NCBI GenBank assembly: GCA_963675785.1
Contig: OY776562.1
Span: 2,432,001 to 2,496,000, forward strand
Length of the DNA stretch: 64,000 bases
Direction: 5' to 3'
Source of the DNA: Anaerolineae bacterium
GTDB taxonomy: Bacteria > Chloroflexota > Anaerolineae > UBA1429
Positions 29,053 to 55,106 of this stretch are shown here, one piece after another. The position numbers were made by a program, and so were the translations under genes. Positions within the stretch are counted from its first letter, which is position 1; the number at the start of each line of letters is the position of its first letter. The notes beneath the pieces are model-generated. The model had not been told where the DNA came from, did no database searches, and saw nothing but the letters and a program-made list of their open reading frames with translations.

Positions 29053-29997
29053 ATGAGGATTCTCATCACGGGTGGAGCCGGTTTCATCGGCTCGCATCTC
29101 TGTGATCTTTTGATAACAAAAGGCCACACCCTTGTCGTCGTGGATGATTTCAGCACCGGAAGCCGGGCCAATGTCCAACACCTCGCCCAGTCGGAGGTTT
29201 TTACGCTGGTCGAGCAGGATGTGGTGGCTCAACCCATCGTCATGGACGGCCCACTAGATGCTGTCATTCACCTGGCTTCACTACCCAGCCCGGTAGACTA
29301 TCTCGGTAATCCCGTACAAACCCTGCTCACCGGCTCTACCGGCACCCATCATGCACTTGAGCTGGCACGCGCCAAGGGTGCCCGCTTTTTGCTGGCCTCC
29401 ACGTCCGAGGTTTACGGCGATCCGCTGGTCCATCCCCAAACGGAAAGCTATTGGGGCAACGTGAATCCCATCGGCCCCCGCGGCGTCTATGATGAGTCCA
29501 AGCGCTTTGCTGAGGCTATGACCATGGCCTATTACACCAAATACGACCTGGATATCCATATCGCTCGCATATTCAACACCTATGGCCCGCGCATGCGTTT
29601 GAACGATGGCCGAGTGGTGCCCAACTTTTGCCGGCAGGCCTTGCGCAACGAGCCGCTGACCGTGTTTGATGACGGCAGCCGTACGCGCAGCTTTTGCTAT
29701 GTCAGCGACCTGGTACGCGGCCTGTACGCCCTGCTGCTTTCAGAGGTGCACGAACCGGTCAATTTGGGCAATCCCCAAGAGATGAGCATTTTGGAATTCG
29801 CTCAGCTCGTCATCGAACTCGCCCATTCGCAATCCGAGATCGCCTTTTCGGCGGCCGACGGCGACCGTACCACCGATGATCCCAAGACCAGGCAACCGGA
29901 CATCACCCGCGCCAAAGAGATGCTGGGCTGGGAGCCCCAAGTAAGTGTACGAGAGGGTATCGCCACTGCCCTAGCCTGGTTCGCAGAAAGGGTTTAG
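29053..29997 (+). CDS. UDP-glucuronate decarboxylase (UDP-xylose synthase)-like SDR
   Basis: [62 protein letters not shown]. Confidence 0.9.
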
Positions 29998-47643: not shown

Positions 47644-48528
47644 CTACCCCCAAAATCGGCGATCCGACTGCCGTACGCGCCCTCTCTCCAGGCGCTCCCT
47701 CACGATATCCGGCGAGGGAAGCTCGTACGCACCCACATTTTCGACAACGAAAGAGGCAACGCAGTTGCCAAAGCGAGCAGCCTCTATCGGATCACCATGC
47801 TCTTGCAAACTGGATAGAAAAGCGGCTGCGAAGACATCCCCTGCACCAGTAGGATCAACCTCAGCAACCTCATAAGCGGGAATATTGGTAACCTCACCCG
47901 CATTATATACTACCGCCCCATGTCGCCCATCAGTAACCACAAGTAACCGGGTCTTCCGCGAGATGGCACGAAGCAGAGTCCAATCGCCGCCAACATCTTC
48001 CTGACTGAGTATAACCGCATCTGCACGATCAAGTACAGTCTCGGCCTGGTGCCATTCACATGGCACAATCCGCCCATCATCTTCCCAGGCACGCAACCAC
48101 CCTTGAGGGGTAACACCTATCAATGAATGAGGGAACAGATCAACAATATCCGAGCTGAGCTCATGGTTGAGCGGGCCCAAATGCACAATGGAGGCGTTCA
48201 GCCATTCTTTAGGGACATCCGTGTTGAGTATGGGCAAAGCAACAGCACGAATGTACTGGGTCCGTGCACCATCAACATATACGTTCTCATACGTCGTGGT
48301 TACCTCACCCAACTGGCAGGCCACTGAAATGTTGGGGTGCCCCACCAGCGCATCTGGCAGAGCGCTTGCTCGAGTTACCACACCCACACACCTGCCAAGC
48401 ATATCAGCATATACAGCCGAATAGCAAGCGGTTCCCCCACTTACATAGCCATCACCCGGAACAAGATCCCGGGTGACGTGGCCAACAACAATATAATCAG
48501 GCAATCGCCCGCTGCAATTCACGCTCAC
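47644..48528 (-). CDS. PfkB family carbohydrate kinase
   Basis: GHVTRD, GGTA.Y, DPTGAGDVFAAAF. Confidence 0.88.
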   Translation of the reverse strand: MSVNCSGRLPDYIVVGHVTRDLVPGDGYVSGGTACYSAVYADMLGRCVGVVTRASALPDALVGHPNISVACQLGEVTTTYENVYVDGARTQYIRAVALPILNTDVPKEWLNASIVHLGPLNHELSSDIVDLFPHSLIGVTPQGWLRAWEDDGRIVPCEWHQAETVLDRADAVILSQEDVGGDWTLLRAISRKTRLLVVTDGRHGAVVYNAGEVTNIPAYEVAEVDPTGAGDVFAAAFLSSLQEHGDPIEAARFGNCVASFVVENVGAYELPSPDIVRERLERGRVRQSDRRFWG

Positions 48529-52302: not shown

Positions 52303-53295
52303 CTAATCCTGTACCGAATCAATCCCAACGCCCCGCACGGGGCATGGCCTCATAACCAACTCACAGCCAGATTCCAAAAGCTGATCAGACAACCTATCCG
52401 GGTCTTGAGAGAGGGCGATGATCGTGCCACCGTCACCAGCACCTGAAAGTTTGGCGCCCAAGGCACCAAACTCGAGTGCTTTGCGAATAACCCGCTCGTT
52501 GGCCTCGCCAGAGCCGCCTAAACCACGTTGTATATCGTGATTCTCGTTCATTAAAGCGCCAAATCGTGTCCAGTTTTCGGCAAGCAAAGCGCGTTTGCCT
52601 TCACGAGCCAGCAAAGCAATACGCTCATAGCCCTGTCGAACTTGGGTGTCCCCATCAAGCCATAACTCGCGAAGTGGCCGATGCACAGCATCCGAAGAAT
52701 GCTGCTTGCCAGTATGAGCCAACACAAAAGGCAATTGGGGCACCATGGGATCGAGGCGTTCTACTGTAGCATACAACTCGCTCGAGTATTCACGATAGTA
52801 CTCTTTTCCACGAAAATCGAGATAGTTCAATTGGCCAAATGTACACATATAGGCATCCTGGTACCCACAAATAACGCGCATATGGTTGAGTTCAACATAG
52901 CGCGCAAGTTCGGCTACCTGATAAAGATTGCCCAGTTGGTTCAAATAGACCAATACGCCATAGACCATGGCTACAGTTAGAGCAGTTGAACTGGACAGGC
53001 CCGCCGACATGGGCACGCTGCTCGAATACTGTATGCGGCAATGCAGATCGTCGCCAAGAAAATAGCCCAATACGGCGCGGGGCACGTCGAACAAATCGCC
53101 GCGCAGGGTATAGTCATCTGGCCCTGATATTGTAAATTTCGTTCCGGCAGTATCCAGCACAAGCTCCGTCGCCGGGCTAATGGTAACTCGTGCCCGCCGA
53201 TCAATGGCACAAGAAATGACAGTGCCGCCGTACATATCCGTCGGATTCCCCAAAAGGCCGCACCTTCCAGGGGCCGAACAAGAGACCTCTCTCAT
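52303..53295 (-). CDS. GHMP-family sugar kinase, glucuronokinase-like
   Basis: PGRCGLLGNPTDMYGG, PMSAGLSSS (GHMP ATP loop), GAKLSGAGDGG. Confidence 0.8.
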   Translation of the reverse strand: MREVSCSAPGRCGLLGNPTDMYGGTVISCAIDRRARVTISPATELVLDTAGTKFTISGPDDYTLRGDLFDVPRAVLGYFLGDDLHCRIQYSSSVPMSAGLSSSTALTVAMVYGVLVYLNQLGNLYQVAELARYVELNHMRVICGYQDAYMCTFGQLNYLDFRGKEYYREYSSELYATVERLDPMVPQLPFVLAHTGKQHSSDAVHRPLRELWLDGDTQVRQGYERIALLAREGKRALLAENWTRFGALMNENHDIQRGLGGSGEANERVIRKALEFGALGAKLSGAGDGGTIIALSQDPDRLSDQLLESGCELVMRPCPVRGVGIDSVQD

Positions 53296-53296
53296 T

Positions 53297-54196
53297 CTAA
53301 AGTTCGCTAGCCTTACGCTTGATGTACTGCCTTAGAGTGTAGCCGTATTTTTCATCGGCCAAAGCCATATCAACAAAAGCCCGATAGTAGCTCTCAAAGT
53401 TGCCAATGTCGTAGCGGTGTTCTCCCTCGCCAAAGCGAATAGCGCGAACGCGATAGCCCATGCGCAGCATCAGTCGAATTGCATCAGTCAGTTGAATCTC
53501 GCCGCCACGGTCAGCCGCCGTACGGCTGATGGCATCAAAAATAGCTGGGGAAAATACATAGCGCGCAGCAATAGCCAGCTGACTGGGTGCCACTGCTGGA
53601 CGCGGTTTTTCAATGAGATCCTCAAGATCGAAATCACGCTGCCCTTCTTGCCCGGCAACCGGCTTGACGATGCCATAACGAAAGACCTCATCAAGCTCTA
53701 CTTGCTCAACAGCAATAGTACAATCGGCGCCACTCTCCAGATGTGTTTTGACCATCTCTTCAAGAAAACAGGCGCCATTCCGTCCCTGAACGATTGAATC
53801 GCCCAACGCGACAACAAAGTGTTCATCGCCTACAAACTGCCGCGCATGATAGATTGCATCGCCAAGACCGCGAGGAATGCTCTGCCGCGTATAGTAAAAG
53901 CGTGTTGGCGTATCAGTAAAAGATAGCTCATCCAACAACGCCTCAGAACCGCCACTGGCCAACAGCCGCTCTAACTCGGGGTCCGCATCAAAATGATCCT
54001 CAATGGCTGTCTTTTTCCGGCCCGTAACAAAGAGAATCTGGTCTAGCCCTGCGTTCTGCAGTTCTTCGACCACATACTGAACCACGGGACGACGCCCAAC
54101 GGGGAGCATCTCTTTGGGCTGAGATTTGGTTGCAGGCAGCAGACGAGTGCCCAATCCCGCTACCGGAATAACCCCCTTGATGATTCGATCAGTCAT
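53297..54196 (-). CDS. UTP--sugar-1-phosphate uridylyltransferase (GalU-like)
   Basis: IPVAGLGTRLLPATK.QPKEMLP, AIEDHFD, GLGDAI, EKP, GEIQLTDAI. Confidence 0.9.
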   Translation of the reverse strand: MTDRIIKGVIPVAGLGTRLLPATKSQPKEMLPVGRRPVVQYVVEELQNAGLDQILFVTGRKKTAIEDHFDADPELERLLASGGSEALLDELSFTDTPTRFYYTRQSIPRGLGDAIYHARQFVGDEHFVVALGDSIVQGRNGACFLEEMVKTHLESGADCTIAVEQVELDEVFRYGIVKPVAGQEGQRDFDLEDLIEKPRPAVAPSQLAIAARYVFSPAIFDAISRTAADRGGEIQLTDAIRLMLRMGYRVRAIRFGEGEHRYDIGNFESYYRAFVDMALADEKYGYTLRQYIKRKASEL

Positions 54197-54228
54197 AGTA
54201 TCTCCTTATTCGGGCCCGTAAGGATGGC

Positions 54229-55047
54229 TCAGCCTTGATCAACGCGGGCAATCAACTTGCGCAACGCTCGAGTCGCAATCTCGAAATTCTCGGGGCCAGA
54301 ATACCCCTTGAAACTACCCGCAAAGCGCAAATGGGGTTCCAGAGACAAAAAACCATCATACCCGCGAGCGTTCAGGGCTGAAAGAATCTCATACACCTGG
54401 CCATCCCCCTCACCCGCTGGCACAATACGCTTTTCAGCGATGATGCCGTCCTTGATGTGCATATAGTCCACATACTCGTCCAGCATGTCCCAGCCGTCAG
54501 TATAGGGATGAACATCTTCCATCACAAAGTTGGCCGGATCAAAAGTCATACGCAACTTGGGCGTGTTGAAGGTTTCTAGAATATCCTTGCAGCGTCGGGG
54601 GATGTCACCATAGATGCGGCGCTCATTCTCATGAAGCAGAACAACCGGACGATCCTCGGCAGCCTCAATCAACTTGGAAAGGCGATCCATCACCGGGCCT
54701 CGATAGGCATCTGCCTCACCCTCGGGCACAAAGAAGGAGAACATGCGGATAAAGGGTGTTCCAAAGAGCTCGGCCAAATCCATGGCGCGCTCGAATTTTT
54801 CAAGATGCGGCTCAAGCGGGGCATCAACCTGAATCTTGCCGATAGGCGAGCCGATGGCAGATACCTGAATGCCTCGCGCATCGAGCTCTGTCTTGAATCG
54901 AGCGATCTCCTGATCATCCAAGTCGAGAACGCCTTTGCCCCATACAGCTCGAAACTCGAGATACCCTATGCCAAGCTGTTCCAAAACATCCAGTTGCTCA
55001 TCCAATTCTTGCGAGATTTCATCAGCAAAGCCTGTTAGTGTGAACAT
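54229..55047 (-). CDS. Sugar phosphate isomerase/epimerase (xylose-isomerase-like TIM barrel)
   Basis: GFADEI, GSPIGK, HENE, FDPANF, HIKD, SLEPH. AGGAGG RBS before ATG 55047. Confidence 0.88.
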   Translation of the reverse strand: MFTLTGFADEISQELDEQLDVLEQLGIGYLEFRAVWGKGVLDLDDQEIARFKTELDARGIQVSAIGSPIGKIQVDAPLEPHLEKFERAMDLAELFGTPFIRMFSFFVPEGEADAYRGPVMDRLSKLIEAAEDRPVVLLHENERRIYGDIPRRCKDILETFNTPKLRMTFDPANFVMEDVHPYTDGWDMLDEYVDYMHIKDGIIAEKRIVPAGEGDGQVYEILSALNARGYDGFLSLEPHLRFAGSFKGYSGPENFEIATRALRKLIARVDQG

Positions 55048-55065
55048 CCTGTCCTCCTTTTTGCC

Positions 55066-55106
55066 AAAAGGAAAGCCCGGAAGCAATCAACGATCGCTTG
55101 CCGGGC
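55066..55106 (-). terminator. Terminator-like hairpin, second of two after tatA
   Basis: Minus strand GCCCGGCAAGCGATC-gtt-GATTGCTTCCGGGC-TTTCCTTTT. Confidence 0.65.

Follow-up and report, generated by a model that had tools for sequence, protein, structure and literature searches.

A conserved GHMP-kinase and GalU-like gene pair in an Anaerolineae genome as a candidate bacterial module for uronic-acid activation

The stretch of DNA analysed here, hereafter the window, comprises 64,000 nucleotides (nt) of the genome of an Anaerolineae bacterium (Chloroflexota; contig OY776562.1, positions 2,432,001 to 2,496,000). On its minus strand it carries three closely spaced genes, for a sugar kinase of the GHMP family, a GalU-like uridylyltransferase and a TIM-barrel protein, the first two of which form a conserved pair that we propose as a candidate route from free uronic acids to UDP-uronic acid. 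The three genes are:

52303 to 53295, minus strand: GHMP-family sugar kinase of 330 residues, a member of the group called clade A below and a predicted hexuronate 1-kinase (Pfam, BLASTP and tree)
53297 to 54196, minus strand: GalU-like UTP:sugar-1-phosphate uridylyltransferase of 299 residues, in a specialised, kinase-linked GalU subfamily
54229 to 55047, minus strand: xylose-isomerase-like TIM-barrel protein of 272 residues, resembling metal-dependent sugar or sugar-phosphate epimerases and isomerases (Pfam, AlphaFold2 model and Foldseek)

A gap of 32 nt (54197-54228) separates the TIM-barrel gene from the GalU-like gene, and a single nucleotide (53296) separates the latter from the kinase gene. 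These distances, the common orientation and the N-terminal motif of the kinase had been pointed out in a first-pass annotation of the window, and all of them match the open reading frame (ORF) coordinates and translation, residues 9-24 of the kinase being PGRCGLLGNPTDMYGG. The gene call for the kinase in the protein collection (P0001, 316 residues, 96% coverage) appears to begin about 14 residues downstream, a start that would cut the conserved N-terminal SAPGR..G motif that the homologues retain. The TIM-barrel ORF spans 54229-55086, and the ATG at 55047 within it agrees with the start of 13 aligned homologues. Downstream of the kinase gene lie rpmH, the 54-residue L34 gene (52022-52186, minus strand), and then rnpA. 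Just upstream of rpmH, at 52275-52246 on the minus strand, is a perfect 12/12 match to the sigma-70 consensus (TTGACA-18-TATAAT), and because rpmH and rnpA stand behind it the three genes end as a unit of their own.

The kinase is a member of the GHMP superfamily, with Pfam matches to GHMP_kinases_N (PF00288, 4.2e-13), GHMP_kinases_C (PF08544, 8.2e-14) and GalKase_gal_bdg. It scores below every NCBIfam equivalog cut-off, including those for mevalonate kinase (MVK; TIGR00549, 97.3 against 163.05) and galactokinase (GalK; TIGR00131, 60.5 against 226.65), and likewise below those for HddA (NF049969, 58.7 against 600) and fucokinase (25.3 against 721). A bona fide MVK and two GalK that exceed their cut-offs, together with an HddA-like gene, are all encoded elsewhere in the same genome. 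In pairwise BLASTP the kinase scores 55.5 bits with this MVK and 43.5 bits with its own GalK, and 98.6 bits (E 7e-28, 28% identity over 335 columns, full length) with P0247, which the source databases call glucuronokinase 1 of Ziziphus jujuba; its top match in the PDB, the searched copy of which contains no glucuronokinase structure, is an MVK at 74 bits. From these comparisons the closest characterised relative of the window kinase appears to be plant glucuronokinase (GlcAK), and the enzyme itself is predicted to be neither a GalK, an MVK nor an HddA.

Within a protein collection clustered at 90% identity the kinase has 1510 matches, and those among the best 120 (59-100% identity) that bear a name are 'galactokinase/mevalonate kinase-like' proteins of Chloroflexota or Anaerolineae. 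An exhaustive search of 50%-identity representatives returned 7318 matches at E<=1e-3, of which 77 reach E<=1e-30; none of the names of the 10 nearest representatives was informative, and look-alikes in the atlas are generic GHMP clusters only. P0247 was picked out by scanning the 150 best representatives for peptides of Lilium glucuronokinase (12/14 and 10/17 matches), and four bacterial representatives are called glucuronokinase by the Joint Genome Institute (JGI). The available part of Pieslinger et al. (2010; PMC2823444) prints two peptides of the purified Lilium enzyme, including VGFLGNPSDVYFGR and WLDGDEF..., the former of which matches the plant motif named in the first-pass annotation. 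The window segment CGLLGNPTDMYGGT is identical to this peptide at 8 of 14 residues and the window LWLDGDTQ corresponds to the second, so that the signatures LGNP[ST]D.Y.G and WLDGD are common to the window kinase and the sequenced Lilium peptides. The N-terminal signature is present throughout the 84-row GlcAK superclade, and it therefore marks that superclade and not GlcAK alone.

Two trees place the kinase within this superclade. The quick tree holds 93 rows, namely the window kinase, 4 paralogues encoded in the same genome and, of the 150 representatives, the 88 with 295-450 residues, 62 having been omitted for length; the careful tree holds 56 rows picked by hand to span clades and contexts, with support given as ultrafast bootstrap and Shimodaira-Hasegawa approximate likelihood-ratio test (SH-aLRT) values. 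Both cover MVK and GalK, and bona fide HddA, fucokinase and galacturonokinase (GalAK) sequences are absent from both. In the careful tree the window kinase falls in an 18-row group, clade A (96/96), and the quick tree agrees. A 'true GlcAK' clade of 14 rows (100/99), to which the window kinase does not belong, unites the plant enzyme and the JGI-named proteins with a eukprot protein and with eight bacterial kinases from loci considered below. Joined by two further rows, clade A is the sister group (90/79) of a larger clade that holds true GlcAK, and MVK and GalK lie outside. Grouping with GalK or MVK in the trees, or with HddA by profile score, which would have spoken against the first-pass naming of the kinase as glucuronokinase-like, was thus not observed. 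That naming holds as a statement of kinship, which scores and trees place with GlcAK over GalK, MVK and HddA, and it goes too far for the plant clade itself: the window kinase is best described as a member of a parallel clade rather than an orthologue of a characterised GlcAK, and since it occupies this parallel position its glucuronate specificity is something we infer.

The partner of the kinase is a nucleotidyltransferase (NTP_transferase, PF00483, 5.5e-32) that matches GalU and YngB structures in the PDB (E 6e-59 to YngB 7o2n) and scores below the galU equivalog cut-off of TIGR01099 (277.3 against 326.8 bits). It has 45 invariant positions in common with ordinary GalU, among them G14, G16, T17, R18, K28, D133, E196, K197 and P198, and we take the corresponding G-x-G-T-R, K, D and EKP motifs to be the catalytic motifs of the nucleotidyltransferase. 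A first tree compared 31 kinase-linked with 16 ordinary GalU sequences, hand-picked to span taxa; in it one branch splits the two kinds with an SH-aLRT of 100, and the same branch receives 96 in a 71-row tree to which 24 partners of true-GlcAK-clade kinases were added. The latter tree contains a single specialised clade (SH-aLRT 100, stem of 1.05 changes per site) with all 31 partners of clade-A kinases and 15 of the 24 true-GlcAK-clade partners, the remaining nine (Bacteroidota and others) forming their own clade nearer ordinary GalU. This membership, together with the co-occurrence described below, therefore puts the window transferase in a lineage seen, in our sample, only beside kinases of the GlcAK superclade. 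The separate subfamily also has its own sequence features. Arg35 and Asp281 are present in 31/31 kinase-linked proteins, where ordinary GalU has Asp (14/16) and Arg (13/16), a reciprocal charge swap that suggests a conserved salt bridge; furthermore, the kinase-linked proteins have a 3-residue insert at 249-251 and an altered C-terminal helix.

The association of the two genes extends well beyond the window. We collected 80 clade-A kinase loci (48-65% identity) from six phyla, represented by Chloroflexota classes, Latescibacterota, Terriglobia, Spirochaetota, Myxococcota and Gemmatimonas, and in 74 of them tblastn finds a GalU-like gene immediately ahead of the kinase gene and in the same orientation; one of the six others has just 76 nt of upstream sequence. 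A further 20 loci from a sample of the phylum, comprising 301 genomes (the window's and 300 more) of the same collection, with some overlap of genomes, have the GalU-like gene directly upstream in 18 cases and the full trio in none. As the GalU-like gene is upstream in 74/80 and 18/20 loci, the arrangement is not chance, and the solid conserved unit is the near-obligate pair of kinase and GalU-like gene, not the trio.

Presence and absence across the phylum follow the same pattern. Besides the window's genome, 33 genomes have a strong kinase match (E<1e-50) and the remaining 267 are counted as kinase-negative. A GalU-like match at E<=1e-80 (52-62% identity) is found in 30/300 genomes, all among the 33, the three kinase-positive genomes without one being G015, G270 and G294. 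The next best GalU match is at 4.3e-66 and 45% identity, giving a two-peaked distribution, and ordinary GalU of 37-47% identity is present in about 150 further genomes of the sample. Both kinds of GalU coexist in 11 kinase-positive genomes, nine of them from genus g72 plus G012 and G061. The tallies for kinase, GalU and UDP-glucuronate decarboxylase (UXS, below) include the unpublished genomes G227, G173, G272, G038 and G145, none of which belongs to the strong kinase or GalU-like sets. Adjacency, co-occurrence and the separate GalU clade thus bear out the first-pass idea of a kinase followed by a uridylyltransferase.

A similar arrangement surrounds the true-GlcAK-clade kinases, for which we examined 80 loci from Armatimonadota, Planctomycetota, Acidobacteriota, Bacteroidota and others. 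A GalU-type gene occurs in 61 of these, and in 49 of the 53 loci with the kinase in the ORF table it lies at most 200 nt from the kinase on the same strand. None of the 301 genomes has two matches to the kinase query at E<=1e-20, a pattern compatible with one kinase clade replacing the other. RmlB is found beside some true-GlcAK pairs and is uninformative on UDP-glucuronate.

The third gene is less constant. Its product belongs to AP_endonuc_2 (PF01261, E 4.6e-26), its best NCBIfam score is 18.5 bits against a cut-off of 305, and its AlphaFold2 model (pLDDT 88.6) most resembles the L-xylulose-5-phosphate 3-epimerase UlaE (3cqj, TM 0.80, 17% identity) in Foldseek, with Art22 and the D-tagatose-3-epimerase-like 3wqo also at a TM of about 0.8 and all structural matches at 14-20% identity. 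E140/E142, D170, H197 and E237, invariant in the homologue alignment, would fit the usual metal site. A short relative of the tagaturonate epimerase UxaE was considered for this protein and rejected (hhalign probability 0.14). The window-type TIM barrel adjoins the pair in 15/80 loci, all nearest relatives that also share the rnpA-yidC-jag-parAB neighbourhood, and homologues of at least 40% identity occur in 14/33 kinase-positive and 26/267 kinase-negative genomes, away from the pair and among varied neighbours. The operon of three genes put forward in the first-pass annotation is in this respect reduced to its two-gene core.

The neighbours of the 80 clade-A pairs, assigned by ORF clustering and Pfam scans, recurrently include genes of hexuronate metabolism:

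directly upstream of the pair: UxaE tagaturonate epimerase (E 2e-147), in 14/80 loci
before UxaE: UxaC, in 10/80 loci
directly downstream of the pair: short-chain dehydrogenase, in 11/80 loci
further downstream: HAD-like protein, in part of the short-chain-dehydrogenase loci
further downstream: LarA-like protein, in 9/80 loci
further downstream: 6-phosphogluconate dehydrogenase (6PGD), in 5/80 loci
further downstream: phosphofructokinase (PFK)-family gene, in loci L119 and L133

At another locus (L107) a PfkB (KdgK-like) kinase and a 2-keto-3-deoxy-6-phosphogluconate (KDPG) aldolase stand before UxaE upstream of the pair, and in a spirochaete (L129) 24 nt separate the GalU-like gene from the end of an upstream GH2 gene, which matches beta-glucuronidase 6ncy (E 2.5e-216). 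Three distinct kinds of hexuronate genes are thus found beside the pair in different lineages, in agreement with the uronic-acid link drawn for the window from its letters. The succession of UxaE, reductase, LarA and 6PGD parallels both the gnd-uxaE-uxaD-gntE-gntK set of Thermotoga, as given in the available part of PMC3750489, and the L. suebicus route, as given in that of PMC6978723. A second, different AP_endonuc_2 TIM-barrel gene (E 5.8e-46; cluster c69) is located upstream of UxaC/UxaE in some operons that carry the pair (L100, 3356-4177, and L091); the window's genome has a copy of it with 65% identity, located at about 2,044,077-2,044,877 beside a GFO/IDH/MocA oxidoreductase homologue.

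We propose a model for the pair that most reasonably fits these observations. The clade-A kinase would phosphorylate the anomeric C1 hydroxyl of a free hexuronic acid, most likely D-glucuronate and possibly D-galacturonate or both, to give the hexuronate-1-phosphate, which the dedicated GalU paralogue would then convert with UTP into UDP-hexuronate for glycan synthesis. The pair would in this way constitute a two-gene sugar-activation module, a bacterial counterpart of the salvage of glucuronate by plant GlcAK with UDP-sugar pyrophosphorylase (USP) and by the fish protein GKUP. The upstream TIM-barrel enzyme may interconvert a keto-sugar intermediate, because UxaE holds the same position in other lineages. 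The succession of kinase and uridylyltransferase in this model is well founded and very probably correct. That the substrate is a hexuronate we regard as somewhat better than an even guess, its narrowing to glucuronate is tentative, and we lean, without strong conviction, towards the recycling of free uronic acids into UDP-uronic acid, that is, towards salvage rather than catabolism. An extended form of the model, doubtful as a whole, would make clade A an unrecognised family of hexuronate 1-kinases that differs in specificity from plant-type GlcAK (galacturonate, for example, or both hexuronates) and that forms, with its dedicated GalU, a UDP-uronate shunt wired into hexuronate catabolic operons of the order UxaC-UxaE-pair-reductase-LarA-like-6PGD. 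Such a shunt would be the sole source of UDP-glucuronate and UDP-xylose in organisms without a true UDP-glucose dehydrogenase (Ugd), possibly including the window's, and it would be fed by the TIM barrel as a new isomerase or epimerase acting on keto-uronates.

The window's own genome provides part of the setting for this model. Its ORF at 29053-29997 (plus strand) encodes a homologue of UXS (E 4.5e-108 to human UXS1, 4gll), an enzyme widespread in the phylum sample (201/301 genomes). The first-pass annotation had correctly named this gene and had suggested that it could consume the product of the pair; as a dedicated consumer UXS was rejected, there being no enrichment with the pair across 300 genomes. 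Two nucleotide-sugar dehydrogenases are encoded in the genome, with best matches to Cap5O-type UDP-ManNAc dehydrogenase (388 and 215 bits) as against 171 and 149 bits to the best Ugd structure, and because both are nearer the former a true Ugd is not evident, although one may be present; the bypass of this enzyme suggested in the first-pass annotation is thus no more than a possibility. The GalU-like protein is the only strong GalU-type match, and GalT is present. Canonical UxaC was not found in this genome apart from one match of 27.6 bits, and a search of it for MIOX gave no match, with control genomes equally silent. About 33 sampled genomes of the same class all keep UXS but lack both a strong kinase match and any GalU-type match at E<=1e-30; the trio is therefore confined to the narrower lineage of the window and to Anaerolineales-labelled relatives (L068-L085). 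At 469500-479407, 2 Mb from the pair, the genome holds a cluster (L150) of LacI, UxaE, short-chain dehydrogenase, HAD-like, LarA-like, 6PGD, PFK-family and Amidohydro_2 genes. It resembles the Thermotoga gnd/uxaE/uxaD/gntE/gntK galacturonate set without a recognisable gluconate kinase or canonical UxaC, and the kinase step lacking from a mannonate/gluconate-to-6-phosphogluconate route may be supplied by its PFK-family or its HAD-like protein.

A number of observations weigh against the proposed salvage of uronic acids. UXS is no more frequent with the pair, being present in 18/33 kinase-positive and 182/267 kinase-negative genomes, and 12 pair-bearing genomes of one genus have no UXS match. 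The GalU-like enzyme may also, or only, make UDP-glucose, because it is the sole GalU-type gene in a genome with GalT. The labels of near kinase relatives in source databases read just 'galactokinase/mevalonate kinase-like'. Among proteins longer than the kinase no fusion of kinase and transferase was found at E<=1e-8, which is weak evidence, and the pyrophosphorylase domain of the fused zebrafish enzyme was, according to the available part of PMC3938481, never shown to be active in vitro. Furthermore, the kinase is placed outside the clade with the sole biochemically characterised (eukaryotic) glucuronokinases; neither the comparison of group-specific kinase residues, which yielded no clear carboxylate-binding candidate, nor that of the GalU-like sugar pocket, which revealed no conserved new basic residue (the gained R35 looking like the salt-bridge swap with D281), points to a site for the carboxylate; and about 50 of the 80 clade-A loci have no uronate gene nearby.

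These last three points are also those expected if the pair were a sugar-1-kinase and UDP-sugar pyrophosphorylase for a non-uronate sugar, for instance a neutral hexose or pentose set free from polymers of plants or microbes, with the uronate neighbours reflecting only a shared regulation of polysaccharide use. Specificity shifts easily among GHMP kinases, and according to the available text of PMC2823444 the two plant uronate kinases, GalAK and GlcAK, are not related to each other within the superfamily. We consider this explanation unlikely, since the window transferase shares its specialised clade with partners of true-GlcAK-clade kinases, since UxaC/UxaE, KdgK with the aldolase and beta-glucuronidase recur immediately upstream in different lineages, and since the genome already has two galactokinases.

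In loci L119 and L133 the pair lies inside operon-like runs of UxaC, UxaE, pair, short-chain dehydrogenase, HAD-like, LarA-like, 6PGD and PFK-like genes, which parallel the Thermotoga set (available part of PMC3750489) but have no recognisable GntK, and in the L. suebicus pathway, according to the available part of PMC6978723, the gene for the mannonate kinase is unidentified. This context would allow the kinase to phosphorylate mannonate or gluconate, both acyclic sugar acids, at C6 in a UxaE-reductase-LarA-like-6PGD route from hexuronates to ribulose-5-phosphate, with the GalU-like protein as a co-located housekeeping enzyme; models of MVK, whose substrate is an acyclic hydroxy-acid, match the kinase nearly as well. 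Such a role is quite unlikely, as it leaves the pairing with a dedicated GalU subfamily in 74/80 loci and the exclusive co-occurrence unexplained, and as the window's genome holds its UxaE to PFK cluster 2 Mb away from the pair. Moreover, the N-terminal R..G..GNP.D motif of the kinase and its CGYQD segment align with those parts of GalK-type anomeric kinases that we take to bind the sugar and to carry out catalysis. Finally, the GalU-like protein is highly unlikely to be simply the organism's housekeeping UDP-glucose pyrophosphorylase with the kinase and TIM barrel as unrelated neighbours, a role that its standing as the sole strong GalU-type match beside a UDP-glucose-requiring GalT would permit, because the roughly 33 genomes of the class without a GalU-type match (E<=1e-30) keep UXS, so that GalU is not the housekeeping route of the class, and because, at E<=1e-80, the subfamily tracks the kinase (30/33 against 0/267 genomes) and shares 11 genomes with an ordinary GalU.

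The salvage model places the pair among known activation systems. Anomeric kinases followed by nucleotidyltransferases also bypass de novo nucleotide-sugar synthesis in FKP (fucokinase/GDP-fucose pyrophosphorylase), HddA/HddC and AmgK/MurU, with other kinase subfamilies (in AmgK another fold) and other sugars and nucleotides. The closest parallel would be plant GlcAK (Arabidopsis At3g01640, EC 2.7.1.43) with USP, with which the window pair has in common a GHMP kinase carrying the LGNPSD.Y.G and WLDGD signatures (available part of PMC2823444) and the two-step logic of sugar to sugar-1-phosphate to UDP-sugar, proposed here from sequence. Unlike the plant system, the window kinase is in a parallel clade at 28% identity, and its partner is a short bacterial GalU-type enzyme rather than the eukaryotic USP of about 600 residues. 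Zebrafish GKUP, described in the available part of Gangl et al. (2014; PMC3938481) as a fused glucuronokinase and putative UDP-glucuronate pyrophosphorylase, likewise joins a GlcAK-type kinase to a short bacterial-type nucleotidyltransferase, whereas in the window the two are separate ORFs 1 nt apart. The bacterial true-GlcAK and GalU pairs of Planctomycetota, Acidobacteriota, Armatimonadota and Bacteroidota have the same architecture, with 15/24 partners in the same GalU clade; their kinases are orthologous to plant GlcAK and the window kinase is of clade A. The embedding among UxaC/UxaE and beta-glucuronidase is a clade-A feature, the true-GlcAK loci having one UxaC and one GH2 match in 80. 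The window transferase itself has the fold and catalytic motifs of ordinary GalU, GtaB and YngB, and differs from them in its score below TIGR01099, separate clade, 3-residue insert, 35/281 swap and changed C-terminal helix.

UDP-xylose, UDP-galacturonate and many surface glycans of bacteria are made from UDP-glucuronate, which in bacteria is, to our knowledge, assumed to derive only from UDP-glucose dehydrogenase. If the model is correct, the pair would provide a second entry route to UDP-glucuronate that ties environmental uronic acids (from pectin, xylan and glucuronides) to glycan synthesis. It would also supply compact bacterial enzymes for the one-pot synthesis of UDP-glucuronate, which at present relies on a plant kinase (available part of PMC6888640), and a clean case in which the specificity of a GalU paralogue can be compared with that of an ordinary GalU of the same genome. 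The first-pass annotation had regarded the route as eukaryotic and uncharacterised in bacteria, a view that is partly borne out. Full-text searches on glucuronokinase, supplements being outside their scope, gave plant, animal and enzymatic-synthesis work and no bacterial characterisation; GlcAK homologues in 'a few bacteria' are already listed, uncharacterised, in the available part of Pieslinger et al. (2010; PMC2823444). What is new is the parallel kinase clade, the dedicated GalU lineage that it shares, and the embedding in hexuronate operons.

Elsewhere in the window, a PfkB-family carbohydrate kinase is encoded at 47644-48528 (minus strand) between jag and parA, and it is kept at this position in the nearest relatives (cluster c25; L068, L072, L076 and L081).

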